Part shown: positions 3,132 to 31,233 of the stretch, piece by piece
Layout of the letters: each line of letters opens with the position of its first letter
How positions within the stretch are numbered: position 1 is the stretch's first letter
Assembly (NCBI GenBank): GCA_035290085.1
Contig: DATDVK010000110.1
Location: forward strand, 1 to 33,411
Length of the DNA: 33,411 bases
From: Candidatus Peribacteraceae bacterium
GTDB taxonomy: Bacteria; Patescibacteriota; Gracilibacteria; Peribacterales; Peribacteraceae
Reading direction: 5' to 3'
Translations under genes and position numbers: made by a program
The notes under the pieces: generated by a model
What the model was told of the DNA's origin: nothing
Databases searched by the model: none
What the model saw: the letters and a program-made list of their open reading frames with translations, nothing else

Positions 3132-3212
3132 CTAGACACGGCGTCGTTTGTCGATGCCGCAACGTATGTACAAAGTATGTAAAATTTTGACTGCAAACGG
3201 CGCTGTGTCTAG
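3132..3212 (+). mobile_element. MITE-like palindromic element, copy 1 (19-bp terminal inverted repeats, 43-bp core) carrying the trpS promoter
   Basis: Left arm ctagacacggcgtcgtttg (3132-3150) and right arm caaacggcgctgtgtctag (3194-3212), 17/19 complementary. The first 22 nt match the copy at 28568-28705 in inverted orientation. No transposase is present. Confidence 0.5.
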
Positions 3213-3215
3213 CAT
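3187..3215 (+). promoter_or_regulatory. trpS promoter, TTGACT - 17 nt - TAGCAT, 6 nt before the ATG (leaderless-type)
   Basis: -35 TTGACT at 3187-3192, an exact 17-nt spacer, and -10 TAGCAT at 3210-3215. The TAG of the -10 box is the last 3 nt of the inverted repeat. The ATG is at 3222. Confidence 0.55.
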
Positions 3216-3221
3216 ACGTTC

Positions 3222-4178
3222 ATGCGCGTGCTCTCCGCCATGCAGCCCTCCGGGCAGCTGCACTTGGGAAACTACTTCGGTTCCATGAAGCCGAACCTCG
3301 ATTTCCTCGCGCAGTCGGAGGACAGCTACTTCTTCATTGCCGATCTCCACGCCCTCACCTCGGTGCAGGATCCCGCACTTCTCCGGCAGTACAGGGAAGA
3401 TGCCATTCTGGGCTATCTTGCGGCGGGATTTGATCCCAAGAAGGCGGTGATCTTCTACCAGTCCGAGGTGCCGGAACACACGGAGCTTCTGTGGATTCTC
3501 TCCACGGTGTCCCCCGTGGGTTTGCTGGAGCGTGCGGTGAGTTATAAGGAGAAAGTGGAGAAGGGTATTTCCGCTTCCGTCGGCTTGTTTGCGTATCCTG
3601 TGCTGCAGGCGGCGGACATCCTGCTGTATGGTGCGGACAAGGTCCCCGTCGGGAAAGATCAGAAACAGCATGTGGAGATGGCGAGGGATATCGCCATCAA
3701 GTTCAACAACCAGTTTGGGGAGGTTCTCACGGTGCCGGAGCCGGTGATTGGTGAGGAAGTTGCGGTGGTCCCCGGTATAGACGGGCAGAAGATGAGCAAG
3801 AGCTACGGCAATACCATTCCGCTCTTCGGGGATGAGAAGGAAGTGAAGAAGGCGATTATGGGGATCGTGACCGATTCCAAGGAAAAAGATGATCCCAAGG
3901 ATCCTGAGACCTGCATCATCTATCAGATTCACCGTCTCATGCTGGGGAAGAAGGAGGCTCTTGCTTTGGCAAAGGAGTACCGCAGCGGGCTCCCGTACGG
4001 GGAAGCCAAGAAGAAGCTCTTCCAGTCGTACATGGAGTTCTTTGGGCCTATGCGTCAGCGCAGGGAGGTAATTTCTCTGAAAGAGGCACGGCATGTGCTG
4101 GATGAAGGGGCCAAAAAAGCCCGCTTTGCAGCCCAGAAGACGATGGAGGAGGTGCGCAGGGCCATTGGATTGAGGTAG
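3222..4178 (+). CDS. trpS: Tryptophanyl-tRNA synthetase
   Basis: 318 aa. HIGH-region PSGQLHLGNY and KMSKS (GQKMSKS), with the length and order typical of bacterial TrpRS. Confidence 0.93.
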   Translation: MRVLSAMQPSGQLHLGNYFGSMKPNLDFLAQSEDSYFFIADLHALTSVQDPALLRQYREDAILGYLAAGFDPKKAVIFYQSEVPEHTELLWILSTVSPVGLLERAVSYKEKVEKGISASVGLFAYPVLQAADILLYGADKVPVGKDQKQHVEMARDIAIKFNNQFGEVLTVPEPVIGEEVAVVPGIDGQKMSKSYGNTIPLFGDEKEVKKAIMGIVTDSKEKDDPKDPETCIIYQIHRLMLGKKEALALAKEYRSGLPYGEAKKKLFQSYMEFFGPMRQRREVISLKEARHVLDEGAKKARFAAQKTMEEVRRAIGLR

Positions 4179-5583: not shown

Positions 5584-6411
5584 TCACGTGAGGTTCTTCT
5601 CAAACACAAATGAACACAGCTCATCAAAGATCGGTGCAGTGGAAGCGACGGCCAGGAGCCCTGAGCGCTTGTTTTTTGGCTCGAGAAACTCGTACCGGTA
5701 CTTGCCCCCAGCTTCTTCCATCATAAGGAAGCCTGCAGCGATGTCCCACAGCCGAATGCCTCTGAAGAAAGCTCCGTCGTTCTGCCCAAGAAGAATTTCT
5801 CCAAGCTCCTGGATGGCGCAGCCATAGTTTTCCATCGAAGCGCAAAATGGCATGGAGGCGTACCAGGCACCATCTTTTCCCTCTTCCGCGCGGCGCAGGA
5901 TGTTCGATGAGAGAATCGCATCATGCATTCCCTTTGTCTGCCGCAGCGAAACCTTCCGCCCGTTGATGGTGGCTCCTTTCCCGAGTGCCCCCTGGTACAG
6001 CTTCTTGAGAAGGGGCATGTACATAACACCTGCTTGGAATGTGCCGTTTTTCTGGACGGTGACGATCGTACCGAAGTTCTCTTTGCCGTGGACGAAGTTC
6101 GTCGTTCCATCCAGCGGATCGATGATCCACTCGTAGGGGGAGTCGGGATTTCCCAAATCATCTGCTCCTTCTTCCTCTGCGATGAACCGGTGATCCGGGA
6201 AGTGGTCCTGAATGGCAGAGATGATGGCATCCTGCGCGAGTCGATCCGCCTCTGTAACGAGGTCGATAGGGGAGCTCTTTGTACCTACTTCCAGCCGATC
6301 AGTTGCATGTGCTCCAAAGACGGCATGGTGCTTATCCACGAGTAAATCTGCAGCTCTCAGTACTGCCTCATTCGCGATTTCCAGCAGCGTTTCAACGGAG
6401 GGAGTACTCAT
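5584..6411 (-). CDS. Inositol monophosphatase family protein (IMPase/FBPase-type)
   Basis: 275 aa. Motifs EEEG, DPLDGTTNF and WDIAAG. Confidence 0.9.
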   Translation of the reverse strand: MSTPSVETLLEIANEAVLRAADLLVDKHHAVFGAHATDRLEVGTKSSPIDLVTEADRLAQDAIISAIQDHFPDHRFIAEEEGADDLGNPDSPYEWIIDPLDGTTNFVHGKENFGTIVTVQKNGTFQAGVMYMPLLKKLYQGALGKGATINGRKVSLRQTKGMHDAILSSNILRRAEEGKDGAWYASMPFCASMENYGCAIQELGEILLGQNDGAFFRGIRLWDIAAGFLMMEEAGGKYRYEFLEPKNKRSGLLAVASTAPIFDELCSFVFEKNLT

Positions 6412-6545
6412 GTCACCTCGTCTTCGACAGGATCATGCCCTTCGCCGATCATCTCTCCAATTTCGTCACCCATGTTGTAGGTTCCTTCTTCCGGCTGACA
6501 GGTGTTCTTGTCATCATCGTCATCATCATCGTCATCAAAGAACAT
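6408..6545 (-). CDS. Small (45 aa) highly acidic ORF with a poly-Asp run; its stop overlaps the IMPase start (ATGA)
   Basis: Hand translation: MFFDDDDDDDDDKNTCQPEEGTYNMGDEIGEMIGEGHDPVEDEVT. The TGA at 6408-6410 overlaps the IMPase ATG at 6409-6411. It is below the size cut-off of the ORF track. Confidence 0.35.
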   Translation of the reverse strand: MFFDDDDDDDDDKNTCQPEEGTYNMGDEIGEMIGEGHDPVEDEVT

Positions 6546-6596
6546 GATGAATGTGGGGAAAGAATGTAAGGCGATTGTAGAGCGCCTTGTGGGATA

Positions 6597-7298
6597 TTAC
6601 AACGTGGGTAATCGGTGATTCTGCAGTTGGTCCCGCAGGGCACGGTACCCTGGCAGAGCCTCTTCCACGAGGCTCCAGTAGGCCGGGGAATGATCTGCAT
6701 GCTTTCGGTGTGCGAGTTCGTGGATGACAATGTAGCGGAGCAGGGAGGGTGGCACGCAGAGCAGTGCTGCATTCAGCATGATGATTCCCCGCGGGGAGCA
6801 GCTGCCCCACTGCGAGGAGGCGAACCGCAGCCGCACACATTGTATGTGTATGCCGAGCGTCTGCTCATTCGCCCTCTCCACGAACCGGCACAAGCGGTTG
6901 CTCTCCCTCTCTGCGATGATGTTCCAGAGAAACCGGTGCAGTGCAGCGCGCCGCGTACGAGGACCCACAGAAACGATCCATCCTTTCCTTGTGCGCGTTG
7001 CAGAGAGTTTCGTGCCTGCTCGAAGCACAATCTCATATCTTTTTCCATTCGCAAGTTCTATGACATCTCTCTGCTTTCCACTGAGCAAGCCTTTGAACGG
7101 ATGAATGTACACAATATGTTTTTCCTCTCTGAGGAGCTGCTTTGTCATCCTATCGAGCAGGTCTTCCACATGTTTGCGCTCTTCTGTTTTTGAGAGGTTC
7201 CGTGCGAGGCGAATGATGATCGTGTCTTCCCGAAACACCGCGCGCGAGTGTTTGTTGCAGGTCCTTTCCACTCGGTGCGGATAGAGGTTCTTCGCCAT
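6597..7298 (-). CDS. YgjP/DUF45 family (M48-like) zinc metallohydrolase
   Basis: WGSCSPRGIIMLN followed by YIVIHELAHRKHADHS (HExxH plus a downstream H). Confidence 0.85.
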   Translation of the reverse strand: MAKNLYPHRVERTCNKHSRAVFREDTIIIRLARNLSKTEERKHVEDLLDRMTKQLLREEKHIVYIHPFKGLLSGKQRDVIELANGKRYEIVLRAGTKLSATRTRKGWIVSVGPRTRRAALHRFLWNIIAERESNRLCRFVERANEQTLGIHIQCVRLRFASSQWGSCSPRGIIMLNAALLCVPPSLLRYIVIHELAHRKHADHSPAYWSLVEEALPGYRALRDQLQNHRLPTL

Positions 7299-13189: not shown

Positions 13190-13876
13190 TCACACAAGTA
13201 CGGCGACAGCTTCCTTCCCTTTCGGCGTGAGGCGGATGTGCTTGTTCCTGGCTTCTATGAGTCCTTCCTGCTCAAGCTTCAGCAGCTGTTTCGTCACGGT
13301 TTCCCGCGTGAGGCCCGTGGCGTTGGCAAGTTTTTCGTGCGTCATTTTTGTGGGTATTCTCAGAATAGGCGGGAGGATGCTCCGTTCCTCCTTTTCGCTG
13401 AAGAGGCGCACGGCGGAGAGAATGCGTTCCTGCGCGCCGAGCAAGGAGAGGAACTTCACCTGTGACTCGTACTCAGAAATCCGTTTGCTGAGCAGCCGCA
13501 GTGCCCGGAGAGCCACTTCCGGTTTCTTCCTGAGGAGTTGCACCATAAAATTCTCCGGCAGTGTGCAGATGAATGATCTCTGCGTGGTTTCCGCGTAGTG
13601 TTTTTCACCTGTCATGAAGCCGATGCTCCCGAAAATGGATCCCGGTTTCAGGATGTCGAGCAACACCTTTTTCCCCTCCGGTGTGGTCTGGTAGATGATC
13701 ACTTCTCCCTCTTTGAGAATGTACATGTCTTCCACCTGTTCCTGCGGAGTGTAGAGGATATAGTGATTGGGGAACTCCCCGTGGTTGATTTTCTGTACGA
13801 TCTCATTGATCTCTTCGTCCGACATAGTGGCGAAGAGCTCCACTTTCTTCAGGTACCAGACGGGAGGGCGGTGCAT
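13190..13876 (-). CDS. Crp/Fnr family transcriptional regulator
   Basis: A cNMP-binding barrel (YILKEGEVIIY, GSIFG) plus a C-terminal HTH (THEKLANATGLTRETVTKQLLKLEQEGLI). TACAAT lies 8 nt upstream of the ATG, so a leaderless mRNA is likely. Confidence 0.88.
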   Translation of the reverse strand: MHRPPVWYLKKVELFATMSDEEINEIVQKINHGEFPNHYILYTPQEQVEDMYILKEGEVIIYQTTPEGKKVLLDILKPGSIFGSIGFMTGEKHYAETTQRSFICTLPENFMVQLLRKKPEVALRALRLLSKRISEYESQVKFLSLLGAQERILSAVRLFSEKEERSILPPILRIPTKMTHEKLANATGLTRETVTKQLLKLEQEGLIEARNKHIRLTPKGKEAVAVLV

Positions 13877-18812: not shown

Positions 18813-18852
18813 ACCACAATGATAGCAGGAATATCTGTTGGATTTCTGTTAC

Positions 18853-18997
18853 CTGATACCACTTCGCGTTTAAAACCGCACAAATCATTTTGATGTATCA
18901 ACTCGCTGTTCTAGGCTTGAGTAAACGCTACGTGGCACGAGAGGAGAGAGTAATTTGTTCTCTGGTGAGTGTCTTTTTTGTTGCAACTTGGTATGAG
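18853..18997. repeat. 145-nt intergenic repeat, copy A
   Basis: It shares ataccacttcgcgttta, aaacgctacgNggNacNagaggagagag and ttgcaacttggNat blocks, in the same order and spacing, with copies at 28731-28876 and 31090-31233. The centre has diverged. Confidence 0.8.
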
Positions 18998-23671: not shown

Positions 23672-23781
23672 CTGGGTTTTGAGTACTGGAATACTAGAAT
23701 ACTTGAGTACCTGAATACTTGATCACTTGAAATATCCGAGTATTCCAGTGCTCAAGTACTCAAGGGAAAAAACCCAAATAC
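23672..23781. repeat. Array of 8-nt GA(A/G)TACTT units that switches to the reverse-complement unit AGTACTCA, forming a ~100-nt imperfect palindrome
   Basis: Read directly: gagtactg gaatacta gaatactt gagtacct gaatactt gatcactt ... agtgctca agtactca ... aatactca. Inner arms 23679-23695 and 23739-23755 are complementary with 1 mismatch. Confidence 0.75.
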
Positions 23782-23784
23782 TCA

Positions 23785-24699
23785 ATGCTGCATATCCCAT
23801 ATTTCCTCTATACTGCAGCTCCTGTGCAAGGCAGGCAGAACATTCTCGGCCAAGACTTCGCGAAGATGCTGAGAGGCGGGGTCATTATGGATGTTGTGAG
23901 CGCGGAGCAGGCATGCATTGCGCAGGCTGCTGGAGCGTGTGCTGTCATGGCTCTCGAACGCATACCGGCGGATATCCGCACGCAGGGCGGGGTGGCACGC
24001 ATGAGCGATCCGCAGCTCATCCGCGAGATACAGGAAGCAGTCTCTATTCCCGTCATGGCGAAGGTGCGCATAGGGCATACGGCGGAAGCGCGCATCCTCG
24101 AGGCTCTTGAGATCGATTTCATCGACGAGAGCGAGGTGCTCACGCCGGCAGATCCTTTCGCACACATCGACAAAACACAGTTTCAGGTGCCGTTCGTCTG
24201 TGGCGCAACCAATCTCGGCGAAGGTCTGCGCAGAGTGGAGGAGGGGGCATCGATGATCCGCACGAAAGGCGAGGCCGGCACAGGAAATGTCATTGAGGCG
24301 GTGCGTCACATGAAAATTATCAGGAGTGGAATCGCATCGTTGAGTGAGATGAGAGAGGAGGAGCTTGCCACGTTCGCTTCCAGGGAGCGGATATCTCTTG
24401 GTCTTGTGCGGAGTGTGCGGGATGCAGGGCGTCTTCCCGTTGTCACGTTCGTTGCGGGAGGAGTGGCCACTCCTGCCGATGCGGCACTACTCATGCAGCT
24501 GGGTGCCGAGGGCGTGTTCGTGGGGTCCGGCATCTTCAAAGCAAAAAATCCGCGGAGAATGGCCGAGAGCATCGTGCAGGCAACCATCCACTTCAGCGAC
24601 CCGAAGAAGCTTCTCGAGGTATCCACAGGTCTCGGAGATGCGATGCCCGGAGAGGAGATAGGGGCAGTTTCTGTCCGTATGCAGGACCGCGGCTGGTAA
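23785..24699 (+). CDS. pdxS: Pyridoxal 5'-phosphate synthase lyase subunit
   Basis: Motifs [25 protein letters not shown] and a C-terminal RGW. An alternative leaderless GTG start at 23824 lies 10 nt after TATACT (23808-23813) and gives an N-terminal length like known PdxS. Confidence 0.93.
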
Positions 24700-26694: not shown

Positions 26695-28557
26695 TCAAAG
26701 GACTGTCCCGGGAGAATCACCTCTGCCAGACACTGATTCCTGTACTGGCAGAAGGACGATTTTCCCGTCGGGATCCCCCTGTCCTGCGGGGAGATACTTC
26801 TTCCCTTCATCCATGAAGAGTAGTGCACAGAGGTGTTCCTGCTTTGCAAGCGGCAATTGTTTCTCTGTCATGCTCACGAACCGGATATCTGTGCCCATCT
26901 GTTTTGCTCTCACAAAAAGTGGATAGTGATAGTACGAGAGCACACCGACGTTGTGGCAATCCATTCGCATCAGTTCGTCGATTGCATGTTCGTACGCGGT
27001 TTGCTTCTGGGGGCCGAGATCGTAGAAATACTGCGGCCACCTGTCGGCTATAAGAATGGAAGGAGCTCCCTTCCCCATCAGGAGCGTATTGGGAACAATG
27101 GGATTTAAGTCGCTGAAAAGCAGGGCGGGGATCGCTGCAACGTACAGAAATACCGCAATGAGTCGCAGCCATTTTCTTGAGGTAGCCGTAGCGAATGCTA
27201 TGCCGACTACAGGAGCAGCCAGTATGAGGAAGGGCATATGGAGTCTTGTCCCGTAAGGATTCCAACTGAGGAATGACCAGGTGATCACAAGACCGCCGAG
27301 GATGGCACCTAGGTACCAGTAATGCTGCTTTTTCTTGGGGAGAGAGAGCAGTGGCACACTCACAACACTTAGAATAATGATAAGGAAATGGAATGGGTTT
27401 CCGGCAAATACTTCATGCGTTTGTGATTTTGGGATATTGAATTCTTGGGATTCGGTGTTTGTACGGTCGATTTCTACGTGCATCACTGCATGTATGTTCT
27501 GGATACCTCGTTCGACAAATGGATTACCGACCATAAGTAATCCTGTTTCGAGGGAGGCATTCTTCAAAATATTCGAAGCGGCAATCGCCGGAGAAAATTC
27601 AGTGTTGATGTTTGTTGCCATATCTTTTCTTGGAACGAGGAAATGCCCAATACTTTCGATGTTTCGGAGGTACTGTGTGGCATTCAGGCTAAGAGCGATG
27701 CTGCCGACTATCAGTGCATGAGAAAGCAGGCGGGTTGGTTGCTTGCGGAGCGAAAGGATGTACCAGAGCACGAATGCGGGGGCGAAAAAATAAGCATTCA
27801 GTTTTGTGAGTAAGCTGAGTCCGAGCACTACTCCTATACGAAGAGCGTTTGCCGGGGATTGGCTGCATCTGTCCCTGAGGATGAGATATGCCAGCATGAG
27901 CAGCCAGAAGGTCACTGCGTGTGTCGCCGTTGCGTTCGTGGACTGCAGTATTCCTATGGGGAGTGTTGCAGCGAAAACCAGTGCAAAGCGTACTGTTCGC
28001 CGCTCCGCGCCGAGCTCTCTGGCGATGAGTGTCACCAGGAAGAGCGAGCCGGCGAATGCGAGCCACTGGGGCATGTGGGCCAGCAGGTCTGAGTCTGTGA
28101 GGAGATAGAGCTGTGCAATGAGGTACTCCGTCAGTGGTGGCATGTACAGCTGCCGCAAATCGAGCGCAGGGTAGTGCACAACGGATTGGTGCTGCACCCA
28201 GTACGCCACTCTTGTCATGTGGTAGCTGATGGAGTCGTGATTGTTCGGAGGTGTGGAGATCGCAATAGCGAAGGTGACGAGGAGGATTGTCCCGATGAGG
28301 ATGACGGTGATCGTCTCTCCTCTGAGTATGTTTCTGGTGTACGAGAGGAATGATCTGCGCTGTTCCCAGAGTTTCTTTCCAAAGAGCAGCCACCCAACGA
28401 TGCCCACGATGCTCCACAGGAACACCACCCATAGTGCGTTCAGCGCATGGAAAAAAGAGAGAAGTTCTGTGATGCCTACAATGGCCACTCCAAAGAAAAG
28501 TGTGATGTCAACGAGGAGGGGCACTTCGAACAAGTGTTCTTTCCCATCTGTTCGCAT
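26695..28557 (-). CDS. Polytopic membrane protein, GT-C fold glycosyltransferase-like (ArnT/PMT, GT39/GT83-like)
   Basis: About 620 aa with many hydrophobic helices. The first-loop motif PPNNHDSISYHMTRVAYW resembles the family. The ATG at 28557 is preferred because the first 12 codons of the track ORF (to 28593) lie in the MITE-like element and its -35/-10 boxes. Confidence 0.55.
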   Translation of the reverse strand: MRTDGKEHLFEVPLLVDITLFFGVAIVGITELLSFFHALNALWVVFLWSIVGIVGWLLFGKKLWEQRRSFLSYTRNILRGETITVILIGTILLVTFAIAISTPPNNHDSISYHMTRVAYWVQHQSVVHYPALDLRQLYMPPLTEYLIAQLYLLTDSDLLAHMPQWLAFAGSLFLVTLIARELGAERRTVRFALVFAATLPIGILQSTNATATHAVTFWLLMLAYLILRDRCSQSPANALRIGVVLGLSLLTKLNAYFFAPAFVLWYILSLRKQPTRLLSHALIVGSIALSLNATQYLRNIESIGHFLVPRKDMATNINTEFSPAIAASNILKNASLETGLLMVGNPFVERGIQNIHAVMHVEIDRTNTESQEFNIPKSQTHEVFAGNPFHFLIIILSVVSVPLLSLPKKKQHYWYLGAILGGLVITWSFLSWNPYGTRLHMPFLILAAPVVGIAFATATSRKWLRLIAVFLYVAAIPALLFSDLNPIVPNTLLMGKGAPSILIADRWPQYFYDLGPQKQTAYEHAIDELMRMDCHNVGVLSYYHYPLFVRAKQMGTDIRFVSMTEKQLPLAKQEHLCALLFMDEGKKYLPAGQGDPDGKIVLLPVQESVSGRGDSPGTVL

Positions 28558-28564
28558 AGCCAGT

Positions 28565-28593
28565 ATTCTAGACACGGCGTCGTTCCCAATCAA
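28565..28593 (-). promoter_or_regulatory. Promoter TTGATT - 17 nt - TAGAAT, 7 nt before the ATG at 28557 (leaderless-type)
   Basis: On the minus strand, -35 TTGATT lies at 28593-28588 and -10 TAGAAT at 28570-28565. The TAG is the terminal triplet of the inverted repeat, the same geometry as at trpS. Confidence 0.5.
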
Positions 28594-28705
28594 ACTTTCA
28601 CCCGACTCCGCAGGAGGCCACGGCCGTAAGGCCGTGGAGCTTCACTGGCTTTGCACAGCCATTATCGTGGCAATGATGTTCACCGACAAACGACGCCGTG
28701 TCTAG
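28568..28705 (-). mobile_element. MITE-like palindromic element, copy 2 (perfect 17-bp terminal inverted repeats, ~104-bp core with a GC hairpin)
   Basis: ctagacacggcgtcgtt (28568-28584) pairs with aacgacgccgtgtctag (28689-28705). The reverse complement of the right end, ctagacacggcgtcgtttgtcg, matches the copy 1 left end over 22 nt. The internal hairpin is ccacggcc-gtaa-ggccgtgg (28618-28637). Confidence 0.55.
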
Positions 28706-28730
28706 TTGGAGGTGAACGGCGATGCCACTT

Positions 28731-28876
28731 CTCATACCACTTCGCGTTTATAAACGATGCCAGTGCACTGCAGTTTTGCAGAAGCAATTCTTGGCTTGTG
28801 CAAACGCTACGCGGTACGAGGAGAGGAAGTCTCCGTTCTCGAGATTAGTATCTTTATTATTGCTGCCAAGTGTCAG
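28731..28876. repeat. 145-nt intergenic repeat, copy B
   Basis: By hand alignment it is roughly 75-80% identical to copy C over its whole length. The right end overlaps the MFS stop codon. Confidence 0.8.
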
Positions 28877-31066: not shown

Positions 31067-31089
31067 AGAATAGTGGAGGAGTTGCTTCT

Positions 31090-31233
31090 ATCATACCACT
31101 TCGCGTTTAAACGATACCAATGCACCGCAGTTTGGCAGAAGCAATTGCTGACTTGTACAAACGCTACGCGGTACAAGAGGAGAGAGTTTCCATTTTCAGG
31201 AACAGTATCCTTGTAATTGCAACTTGGCATCAT
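31090..31233. repeat. 145-nt intergenic repeat, copy C (between divergent genes)
   Basis: Same blocks as copies A and B. The left end reads TGGTATGAT on the minus strand, 23 nt upstream of the dehydrogenase ATG. Confidence 0.8.

Follow-up and report, generated by a model that had tools for sequence, protein, structure and literature searches.

Two palindromic elements upstream of trpS and a PMT_2-family gene

The window, the whole stretch of 33,411 nucleotides analyzed here, comes from Candidatus Peribacteria, a CPR bacterium. CPR/Patescibacteria are uncultivated, have genomes of ~1.2 Mb, and are usually called poor in mobile DNA. Pfam searches and existing gene calls show housekeeping genes only in the window and no transposase. 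Two of its genes, trpS and a gene for a PMT_2-family glycosyltransferase, are each preceded by a copy of a short palindromic element, designated W1 and W2. Arm sequences of this element match four times in the window, compared to 0.09 expected, and none of 100 shuffles reached four matches.

W1 (3132-3212, plus strand) is 81 bp long and aligns as the 94-bp basic unit of the family with a 13-nt internal deletion; homology with the main subfamily covers its left 25 nt and right 50 nt. The left terminal inverted repeat, CTAGACACGGCGTCGTTTGTCGATG (3132-3156, plus strand), is kept in all copies and is 96% complementary to positions 28681-28705. Within it, CTAGACACGGCGTCGTT (3132-3148, plus strand) is paired with an inverted copy at 3196-3212 that differs at 2 of 17 nt. 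An earlier reading of this DNA from its letters alone (the sequence-only reading) had described an 81-bp element bounded by 19-nt arms at this place, and such an element is indeed present, with 17 of 19 positions of the quoted arms matching; the terminal inverted repeats of W1 come to about 19 to 25 nt. The right subterminal region and right inverted repeat, TTTTGACTGCAAACGGCGCTGTGTCTAG (3185-3212, plus strand), are identical at 23 of 28 nt to the right end of the main subfamily, GTTTGATTGGAAACGGCGCCGTGTCTAG. The same copy is found in contigs L013-L017, L049, and L050 with 95 to 100% identity. A GTATGTA direct repeat, to which attention had been drawn, does occur in W1 (3164-3170 and 3175-3181); it is incidental, since the closest allele, that of L049 (95 to 97% identical), reads GTATGCA and GCATGTA there. 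A global alignment hinted that the core of W1 resembles the native promoter seen in L052; the resemblance was discounted, as this stretch is ~74% identical to the right half of the main subfamily.

The end of W1 next to trpS has the layout of a promoter. A -35-like hexamer, TTGACT (3187-3192, plus strand), is supplied by the element and is separated by 17 nt from the -10 hexamer TAGCAT (3210-3215, plus strand), in which TAG is the element terminus or the duplicated target and CAT belongs to the native flank. The trpS ATG at 3222 lies 6 nt after TAGCAT and 9 nt from the element, without a Shine-Dalgarno sequence. The promoter scan calls the same site, so that both the scan and the coordinates agree with the arrangement originally proposed. 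The trpS gene (3222-4178, plus strand) encodes a tryptophan-tRNA ligase whose mRNA is probably leaderless. Counted from the ATG at 3222, residue 1 aligns with position 6 of the Pfam profile for class I W/Y tRNA synthetases, an in-frame TAG is located 4 codons upstream, and 120 homologues of 312 to 336 amino acids cover 98 to 100% of the query.

W2 (28568-28705, minus strand) is 138 bp long, with arms that are perfect over 17 nt, and consists of the 94-bp unit plus a 44-nt GC-rich internal hairpin module (28597-28640, minus strand) that sets the 138-bp subfamily apart from the 94-bp one. In the DNA examined, the hairpin modules of longer copies were seen only inside the element and not as an independent repeat family. 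According to the promoter scan, an element-supplied TTGATT (28588-28593, minus strand) stands 17 nt from TAGAAT (28565-28570, minus strand), the pair spanning 28593-28565, and TAGAAT ends 7 nt before the ATG at 28557. Here TAG derives from the CTAG target or the terminus, and AAT is flank. The PMT_2-family gene (26695-28557, minus strand) is putatively served by this hybrid promoter. The sequence-only reading had recognized this second copy, and the similar promoter geometry that it described is there; in window coordinates, however, W2 is inverted relative to W1, the 25-nt left arm of W1 being the reverse complement of 28681-28705, and it faces a gene on the minus strand.

An element family of Peribacteria and its CTAG target

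About 16 distinct insertion loci were found in public genomes and metagenomes, 7 of them genome loci; all belong to Peribacteria and all have two convergent arms. Arm matches outside Peribacteria are single, as chance predicts. The genome of the window has at least two copies (W1 and W2); it is partly represented in the metagenome scan, where W2 was not recovered. Genome MFYJ01, the sole representative genome with several matches, has at least five loci. Copies range from 81 to 289 bp, their cores being nonconserved or made of hairpin modules, and have no coding capacity. The terminal inverted repeats extend over roughly 21 to 25 nt (CTAGACACGGCGYCGTTTGTC): 11 aligned copies share an almost invariant terminal stem of 18 nt, and arm similarity reaches 21 to 25 nt. 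Copies at unrelated loci share 93 to 98% identity (247/253 between the copies of L001 and L011; 133/138 between W2 and that of L011), and many contigs break off within the element, as repeats do. These data support the view that W1 and W2 are real copies of a family of nonautonomous DNA transposons (MITEs) confined to Peribacteria. Counting further copies and comparing empty with filled sites in relatives had been put forward as checks of the MITE reading, and both speak for it: several Peribacteria genomes carry copies at loci unrelated to one another, and orthologous sites in relatives are empty.

Two clean loci have a single CTAG when empty and CTAG...CTAG when filled, exactly at the insertion point. 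In L058-L060, where the PMT_2 protein is 84% identical, the MFS-PMT_2 spacer is 39 nt long, lacks the element, and reads ...CCAG-CTAG-GATGCACCT-ATG, compared to ...CCAA-CTAG[134 nt]CTAG-AATACTGGCT-ATG in the genome of the window. In L066, where a flanking protein is 79% identical, the convergent gene ends in TTC-TAG, and so in CTAG, and in its filled counterpart L011 the element lies exactly at AAC-TAG. The proposal that the C-TA-G flanks reflect a target duplication is upheld by these two sites. Orthologous sites without the element are also seen at trpS (L052/L053, L054, L056, and L057), in L025 for the L002 site, and in L041 for the L024 site. At the ~16 loci, the flanks are CTAG or its single-base decay to CTGG, with no CTAA or TTAG. 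At trpS itself a CTAG target is assumed, since GTAGCAT, not CTAGCAT, stands at the nearest trpS sites without the element. CTAG is scarce in the window, with 13 occurrences compared to 126 expected from base composition (~10-fold depletion) and 27 expected from a Markov model, whereas other 4-nt palindromes are close to their expected counts; element ends account for 4 of the 13.

Filled sites with CTAG on either side fit equally well with a TA duplication, in which the element ends in G...C, and with a duplication of all 4 bp of CTAG, in which the element proper is ACACGG...CCGTGT. The latter would imply mobilization by an IS5-type or other transposase, an alternative that we regard as fairly unlikely. 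IS5 elements target YTAR, and an IS5-family transposase is encoded on L002, a MITE-carrying Peribacteria contig: a screen for open reading frames between inverted repeats returned this insertion sequence (L002 5859-7024; DDE_Tnp_1 plus DUF772) and an amino acid permease that was a false positive. The L002 insertion sequence was rejected as a partner, its ends (GCTGAAAAACTCC...) being unrelated to those of the MITE, and the lack of CTAA and TTAG among the flanks also argues against the IS5-type alternative. A duplication of TA alone agrees with the documented choice by IS630 of TA within 5'-CTAG-3' (Tenzen and Ohtsubo 1991, listed among the references of PMC2170065).

An IS630-like transposase with matching terminal inverted repeats, which the sequence-only reading had envisaged, was found neither in the window nor in the loci examined. 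No IS630-family DDE transposase lies beside any copy in ~0.5 Mb of loci, no autonomous relative with the same ends was detected in ~70 loci or in viral and plasmid collections, and no wide arm pairs (>300 bp and up to 3 kb apart, with 4 to 5 mismatches allowed) exist in the ~70 loci. The scan of viral contigs gave just two single-arm chance matches, both within coding sequence, and a distant blastn search of plasmids with the 289-bp copy gave no match.

Proposed hybrid promoters at trpS and the PMT_2-family gene

The interpretation that we favor, with a probability of roughly three in four, is that a CTAG-inserting MITE of Peribacteria, mobilized in trans by an IS630-type transposase, has made hybrid leaderless promoters at trpS and the PMT_2-family gene. 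Insertion into CTAG would most likely proceed via an IS630/Tc1-mariner-type DDE transposase acting in trans; the central TA would be duplicated, and the terminal G and C of the element would rebuild CTAG on both sides. CTAG, strongly depleted in these genomes, survives at, among other places, C-TAG stop codons and (TG)C-TAGNNT -10 boxes, the latter placed 6 to 8 nt ahead of start codons, as most genes here seem to be leaderless. Insertion at these sites would be self-repairing, in that either the -10 hexamer or the stop codon would be restored. Some copies occupy C-TAG stop codons, others C-TAGNNT -10 boxes, and one lies in frame within a gene. At trpS and the PMT_2-family gene the element would have displaced native upstream promoter DNA, at trpS by landing on the 5' edge of the native -10 box. 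The TTGAYT of the element now precedes the regenerated -10 box by exactly 17 bp, and both genes would probably give rise to leaderless mRNAs from hybrid promoters in which the -35 and spacer come from the element and the -10 is ancestral.

Element-free trpS orthologs (L052, L053, and L057) already have TAGCAT-N6-ATG, indicating that the -10 box and the leaderless layout are ancestral and that only the -35 and spacer were donated. All trpS orthologs carry TAGCAT or TACACT 6 to 8 nt before ATG, and the empty PMT_2 site reads CTAGGAT-N6-ATG. Hence, the original statement that the element terminus forms the trpS -10 box is correct insofar as TAG overlaps the element end, but the box was not created by the element. 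In W1, W2, L008, and the majority of main-subfamily copies, the distance between the terminal TAG and TTGAYT or TTGAAG is exactly 17 nt, and a valid -10 box arises only where the flank adds NNT, as in W1, W2, and L041. The L041 copy, ahead of an ABC-2 transporter gene, reads TTGATT-17-TAGCAT-N6-ATG, so that three independent copies share the -35/17/-10/N6-7/ATG layout.

It is also conceivable, if rather improbable, that the hybrid promoter is not used and that trpS is transcribed from further upstream, for example by read-through from the co-directional pseudouridine synthase gene, leaving the element in a 5' untranslated region. TAGCAT matches the -10 consensus at just 4 of 6 positions, and the native TG extended -10 motif (tgg-TAGCAT in L052) was lost upon insertion, which would favor such an upstream start. 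However, no Shine-Dalgarno sequence is present in the 9 nt between element and ATG, such a leader would carry a hairpin of -36 kcal/mol at its end, TANNNT-N6-ATG is modal in these genomes and conserved in all trpS orthologs, and three independent copies share the promoter layout.

A bolder version of the favored interpretation, which we advance tentatively, sees in the element, rather than tolerated junk, a self-repairing, promoter-upgrading transposon with ends shaped for a tiny, CTAG-depleted, and largely leaderless genome, served by an IS630-like transposase that is still active in the lineage. If true, the combination of the ...GTGTC-TA-G end and CTAG targeting would automatically rebuild TAG, whether as a stop codon or as the opening half of a -10 box, TTGAYT 17 bp inside would give each promoter that is hit a near-consensus -35 box, and the expression of housekeeping genes such as trpS would be rewired in CPR bacteria.

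RNA and operator roles, and relation to known elements

A mainly RNA-level role, in which the element is a structured RNA or a terminating, stabilizing, or RNase III-cleaved hairpin spread by selection for that role, is highly improbable. Every copy has a terminal stem of 18 to 23 bp with folding z-scores of -6 to -8.5, several copies directly follow stop codons, and RNase III acts on the Correia elements (PMC2649163). Against this, a consensus fold of 11 copies has compensatory changes at 0 of 18 consensus pairs and retains only the invariant terminal stem, and an RNA family was therefore dropped as an explanation. Both arms are conserved in sequence without compensatory changes, which agrees better with recognition by a protein than with pairing in RNA. 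The window has no Rfam match at gathering thresholds, and no T-run terminators were found near W1 and W2; the tRNA scan of the window was negative as well. In addition, copies occur in either orientation relative to transcription and also upstream of predicted transcription starts, and the insertion polymorphism demonstrates mobility. RNA-level side effects are possible where copies are transcribed. Last, a fixed transcription factor operator or looping site conserved with the trpS promoter, the alternative raised at the outset, would suit the long, strongly conserved arms, the overlap of the proximal arm with the promoter spacer and -10 box, and the Crp-family regulator encoded at 13190-13876, but it is refuted, to the point of being almost negligible, by orthologous trpS, PMT_2, and other loci without the element, by copies that lie between convergent genes, at stop codons, or in frame within an open reading frame, by near-identical copies at unrelated loci, and by arm spacings of 47 to 255 nt.

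The MITE family as interpreted here has its closest functional analogue, as judged by layout, in the Correia "Black promoter" of Neisseria, in keeping with the likeness to promoter-donating Correia elements seen by the sequence-only reading. Correia elements (CREE) have terminal inverted repeats, length variants from internal indels, insertion polymorphism among strains, and a frequent TA target, and the Black promoter consists of a gene-proximal -35 and a partial -10 that the flank completes in some locations (PMC2649163). Like CREE, the Peribacteria elements are small (~70 to 157 bp in this comparison), noncoding, and bounded by terminal inverted repeats, with indel-derived length variants, insertion-site polymorphism, a long terminal stem that is a potential RNase III substrate, and a Black-promoter arrangement in the predicted promoters at trpS, PMT_2, and L041. 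They differ in their host phylum (CPR Peribacteria), in a target that is the full CTAG and not simply TA, as CREE often use, in copy number (~5 per genome compared to >100), and in promoters that are probably leaderless with a -10 box that demonstrably existed before. A MITE that supplies a -35 and a partial -10 is thus a mechanism already known from the Neisseria Correia elements.

The family is filed as a functional analogue and not as a CREE member because its host is Peribacteria and its repeat, CTAGACACGGCGTCGTTTGTC, as compared by eye, does not appear to resemble the Correia repeat. MITEs of the IS630/Tc1-mariner type likewise have TA-flanked terminal inverted repeats and a length of ~100 bp, ISY100/IS630 being the autonomous type, and RUP of Streptococcus pneumoniae is a comparable bacterial MITE of this derivation; the difference is that the loci examined here yielded no IS630-family transposase whose ends match. 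The in-frame copy (L024 11676-11769) lies inside a conserved open reading frame for a two-domain glycosyltransferase and adds a predicted linker peptide of 31 residues, whereas the L041 ortholog is uninterrupted, with a net difference of 23 residues. This copy recalls the Rickettsia palindromic elements, of which in-frame palindromic insertions are reportedly, after Ogata et al. in 2000, the hallmark. Unlike them, just one of the ~16 copies is intragenic, and the length of the basic unit, 94 nt, is not divisible by three.

The literature searched contained no description of MITEs in CPR/Patescibacteria. The clean empty and filled sites show recent transposition in CPR genomes, and the family offers three natural, predicted cases of hybrid promoters. 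The CTAG preference and the genome-wide leaderless promoters would make -10 boxes and stop codons the places where insertions land.

A separate observation concerns gene starts. Across 142 Peribacteria gene starts, the position of TANNNT peaks 6 nt before ATG (17 cases compared to a background of ~1.6), spacers of 6 to 12 nt occur in 54 of the 142, and a Shine-Dalgarno peak is absent; TANNNT-N6-ATG is the modal geometry in the genomes examined. For the annotation and engineering of Peribacteria, this sharp signal may prove no less useful than the element.

Copies, length variants and insertion sites of the element

The 81-bp palindrome that the sequence-only reading placed before trpS (W1, positions 3132-3212, plus strand) was borne out, with arms consisting of CTAGACACGGCGTCGTT(TG) and its reverse complement that pair with 2 mismatches. 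The second copy, W2 (28568-28705, minus strand), has perfect 17-nt arms. A longer, 25-nt left arm of W1 matches the reverse complement of 28681-28705, indicating that W2 is inverted in the window. Arm matches in the 33-kb window number 4, against 0.09 expected, and no shuffle reached 4.

Further copies exist beyond the window. Scanned for an exact 17-mer of the arm, a set with one genome per species yielded 12 loci. All 7 in Peribacteria/Peregrinibacteria have a second, convergent arm 94 to 289 bp off; the 5 in other phyla have a single arm each and were rejected as chance matches. An 18-mer arm scan of JGI metagenomes added loci, and ~16 distinct insertion loci remained once duplicates were removed by their flanks. 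The repeat, together with the trpS protein, assigns the window to Candidatus Peribacteria (CPR/Patescibacteria). The contigs with matches are groundwater assemblies of the Rifle aquifer type, several of which terminate within the element, the expected behavior of a repeat. Most often the element is 94 bp long (9 loci); its other lengths are 81, 97, 138, 193, 253 and 289 bp. Arms of ~21 to 25 nt are common to all copies, and in the main subfamily the core is shared too, with 93 to 98% identity between unrelated loci. W1 is the 94-bp unit minus 13 nt through an internal deletion, and 23 of the 28 nt at its right end agree with the main subfamily. Longer copies add GC-rich hairpin modules, nested one in another, to the 94-bp unit; in the DNA compared, these modules were found only inside the element. 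They measure 44, ~115 and 36 nt among the longer copies (L011, 1555-1843; L001, 1016-1268; L032, 1262-1454; L023, from 42). The L011 and L023 copies occupy orthologous sites with different modules, so the cores change fast between constant ends.

In related genomes the gene order is preserved and the element is missing. At the PMT_2 locus, contigs of the RIFOXYC2_FULL_55_14 type (PMT_2 84% identical) have an MFS-PMT_2 spacer of 39 nt, TGA-GAAGTAGCATCGCAGTCCCCCTCCAG-CTAG-GATGCACCT-ATG, and the filled site of the window genome reads ...CACCTCCAA-CTAG[134 nt]CTAG-AATACTGGCT-ATG. The 289-bp copy in L011 separates two convergent genes and sits precisely on the stop codon AAC-TAG of one of them; in a genome with a flanking protein 79% identical, that gene ends in TTC-TAG, which makes the site a CTAG, and the element is absent. 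In these two clean cases, one CTAG when empty becomes CTAG...CTAG when filled. Four more distant trpS loci lack the element within the same pseudouridine synthase-trpS-Maf synteny, the L002 insertion site is empty in L025, and that of L024 is an uninterrupted open reading frame (ORF) in L041. This comparison supports the MITE reading, and we put the probability of a mobile MITE family with CTAG as its target at about 0.9. The c-TA-g flanks had been called compatible with a TA target duplication, and so are the empty and filled sites: TA would be duplicated within CTAG, and the terminal G and C of the element would rebuild the tetranucleotide. Duplication of the whole 4-bp CTAG fits equally well. 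CTAG is depleted ~10-fold in the window, with 13 sites versus 126 predicted by base composition and 27 by a Markov model, and 4 of the 13 are element ends; GATC, TCGA, AGCT, CATG, GTAC, ACGT and TGCA are near expectation.

Promoter geometry and probable leaderless starts

ATG 3222 is the true start of trpS: its product aligns from residue 1 with the class I W/Y synthetase Pfam profile, the 120 homologues listed are 312 to 336 aa long with 98 to 100% query coverage, and an in-frame TAG lies four codons 5' of the ATG. The promoter described before this gene stands by both coordinates and a promoter scan, with TTGACT (3187-3192), a 17-nt spacer, TAGCAT (3210-3215) and 6 nt to the ATG, all on the plus strand. 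The scan likewise finds TTGATT-17-TAGAAT (28593-28565, minus strand) 7 nt before ATG 28557 of the gene downstream of W2, which encodes a 620-aa PMT_2-family glycosyltransferase (Pfam). The two copies thus have identical geometry toward a gene start, as had been claimed, but on opposite strands, W2 being inverted and its gene lying on the minus strand.

Is this layout a product of the insertion? Among 142 Peribacteria gene starts, TANNNT peaks 6 nt before the ATG (17 cases versus a background of ~1.6), 54 have it at a spacing of 6 to 12 nt, and no Shine-Dalgarno peak is seen. TG(C/G) often directly precedes the -10 box, about one-fourth of the promoters have TTG 17 to 19 nt upstream, and 16 of 50 aligned -10 hexamers begin with TAG; (TG)C-TAGNNT is among the sequences in which CTAG persists. 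These features suggest that leaderless-type starts are the norm in these genomes, and leaderless mRNAs seem to be the default of the lineage; no literature report of such a default in Peribacteria was found. All element-free trpS orthologs carry TAGCAT-N6-ATG (L052/L053 and L057) or TACACT-N7/8-ATG (L054 and L056), and the empty PMT_2 site has C-TAGGAT-N6-ATG, indicating that the -10 box and leaderless layout are older than the insertion. Hence, the TAG of the trpS -10 box does coincide with the element terminus, as proposed, but the box is ancestral rather than formed by it. Inserting at the 5' border of the box, the element regenerated TAG and replaced everything upstream with its own DNA, placing TTGACT or TTGATT exactly 17 bp from the box. 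Where the flanking DNA fails to provide NNT, a copy lacks a valid -10 box. The suggested likeness to promoter-donating Correia elements agrees with the "Black promoter" as described in PMC2649163, where the element has a -35 box and a partial -10 box completed by the flank. Sequence statistics point to promoter activity and leaderless translation, and hybrid promoters driving leaderless trpS and PMT_2 transcripts are a slightly favored reading. It is possible that trpS is instead transcribed from upstream with the element in its 5' untranslated region, but the geometry disfavors this.

Elsewhere in the window, a 26-nt inverted repeat at 23679-23755 (85% complementary, 25 nt apart) holds a rare CTAG (23694, within TAGAAT) just upstream of a PdxS/SOR_SNZ homologue gene starting at 23785, and possibly serves as an operator or promoter structure.

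Proposed mobilizing enzyme and nature of the element

According to Tenzen and Ohtsubo (1991), as cited in PMC2170065, IS630 duplicates TA within 5'-CTAG-3', the same behavior as the change from CTAG to CTAG...CTAG here. A mobilizing enzyme of the IS630 type, a class read from the target alone, would have an even chance of being correct. The IS630-like transposase with matching terminal inverted repeats, for which a search had been proposed, was not found in the window, where Pfam and gene calls gave only housekeeping genes, nor adjoining any copy, nor in the viral and plasmid collections searched. Mobilization may instead be of the IS5 type. One MITE-bearing Peribacteria contig (L002) contains an IS5-family insertion sequence, whose ends show no relation to those of the MITE. 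This insertion sequence is complete (5859-7024, 1,166 bp, 26-nt inverted repeats GCTGAAAAACTCCGCCACTGACAGCG), encodes a 331-aa transposase with DDE_Tnp_1 and DUF772, and lies ~2.2 kb from a MITE copy.

That the element is primarily an RNA element is not supported: strong hairpins are predicted in its copies (z-scores of -6 to -8.5), but none of 18 pairs shows compensatory changes, the sequence of both arms is conserved, and neither an Rfam match nor a terminator was found.

The other interpretation offered from the sequence, a fixed operator palindrome around the promoter, is refuted by empty sites and by the variety of contexts. At L001, L011, L012/L020, L004/L036 and L026/L051, the TAG that ends the element doubles as the stop codon of the neighboring gene; the W1, W2 and L041 copies lie 9 to 10 nt before an ATG; and a 94-bp copy (L024, 11676-11769) sits in frame inside the ORF of a 771-aa two-domain glycosyltransferase, adding 31 residues in the linker. 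A single BLASTP alignment with the uninterrupted L041 ortholog (619-2271) shows 46% identity over 479 residues, and its only gaps are the 31 element-encoded residues.

Overall, the original observation is confirmed and its MITE interpretation supported, with two refinements: the ancestral -10 box and the inversion of W2. In kind, the element belongs with bacterial MITEs: its hybrid promoter is Correia-like, its choice of target IS630-like, and one in-frame copy, in L024, resembles a Rickettsia palindromic element (RPE). The Peribacteria genome paper (PMC4736985) mentions neither such repeats nor leaderless genes, and full-text literature searches for MITEs together with CPR or Patescibacteria brought up incidental co-mentions only.

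Other small repeats in the window

About 103 nt of the long pseudouridine synthase-trpS spacer (2711-2813) are missing in the 95 to 97% identical contig L049. They hold a GC-rich hairpin, GCGGGGGC-TCT-GCCCCCGC, like the modules nested in longer MITE copies, and may be another small insertion.

A second repeat of ~145 nt occurs at 18851-18996, 28723-28866 and 31086-31232, with imperfect inverted ends of ~12 nt (TACCACTTCGCG...GCAACTTGGTA) and a flanking 3-bp direct repeat, TGA or TCA; judged by its sequence, this family appears to be another MITE, one with a TNA-type duplication. Contig L058, whose orthologous MFS-PMT_2 spacer is 39 nt long, lacks the copy at 28723-28866, the place of which would be directly behind the TGA that ends the MFS gene; the spacer grew from 39 to 315 nt through two independent insertions. 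The copy at 31086-31232 is also present in L058, with 77% identity.
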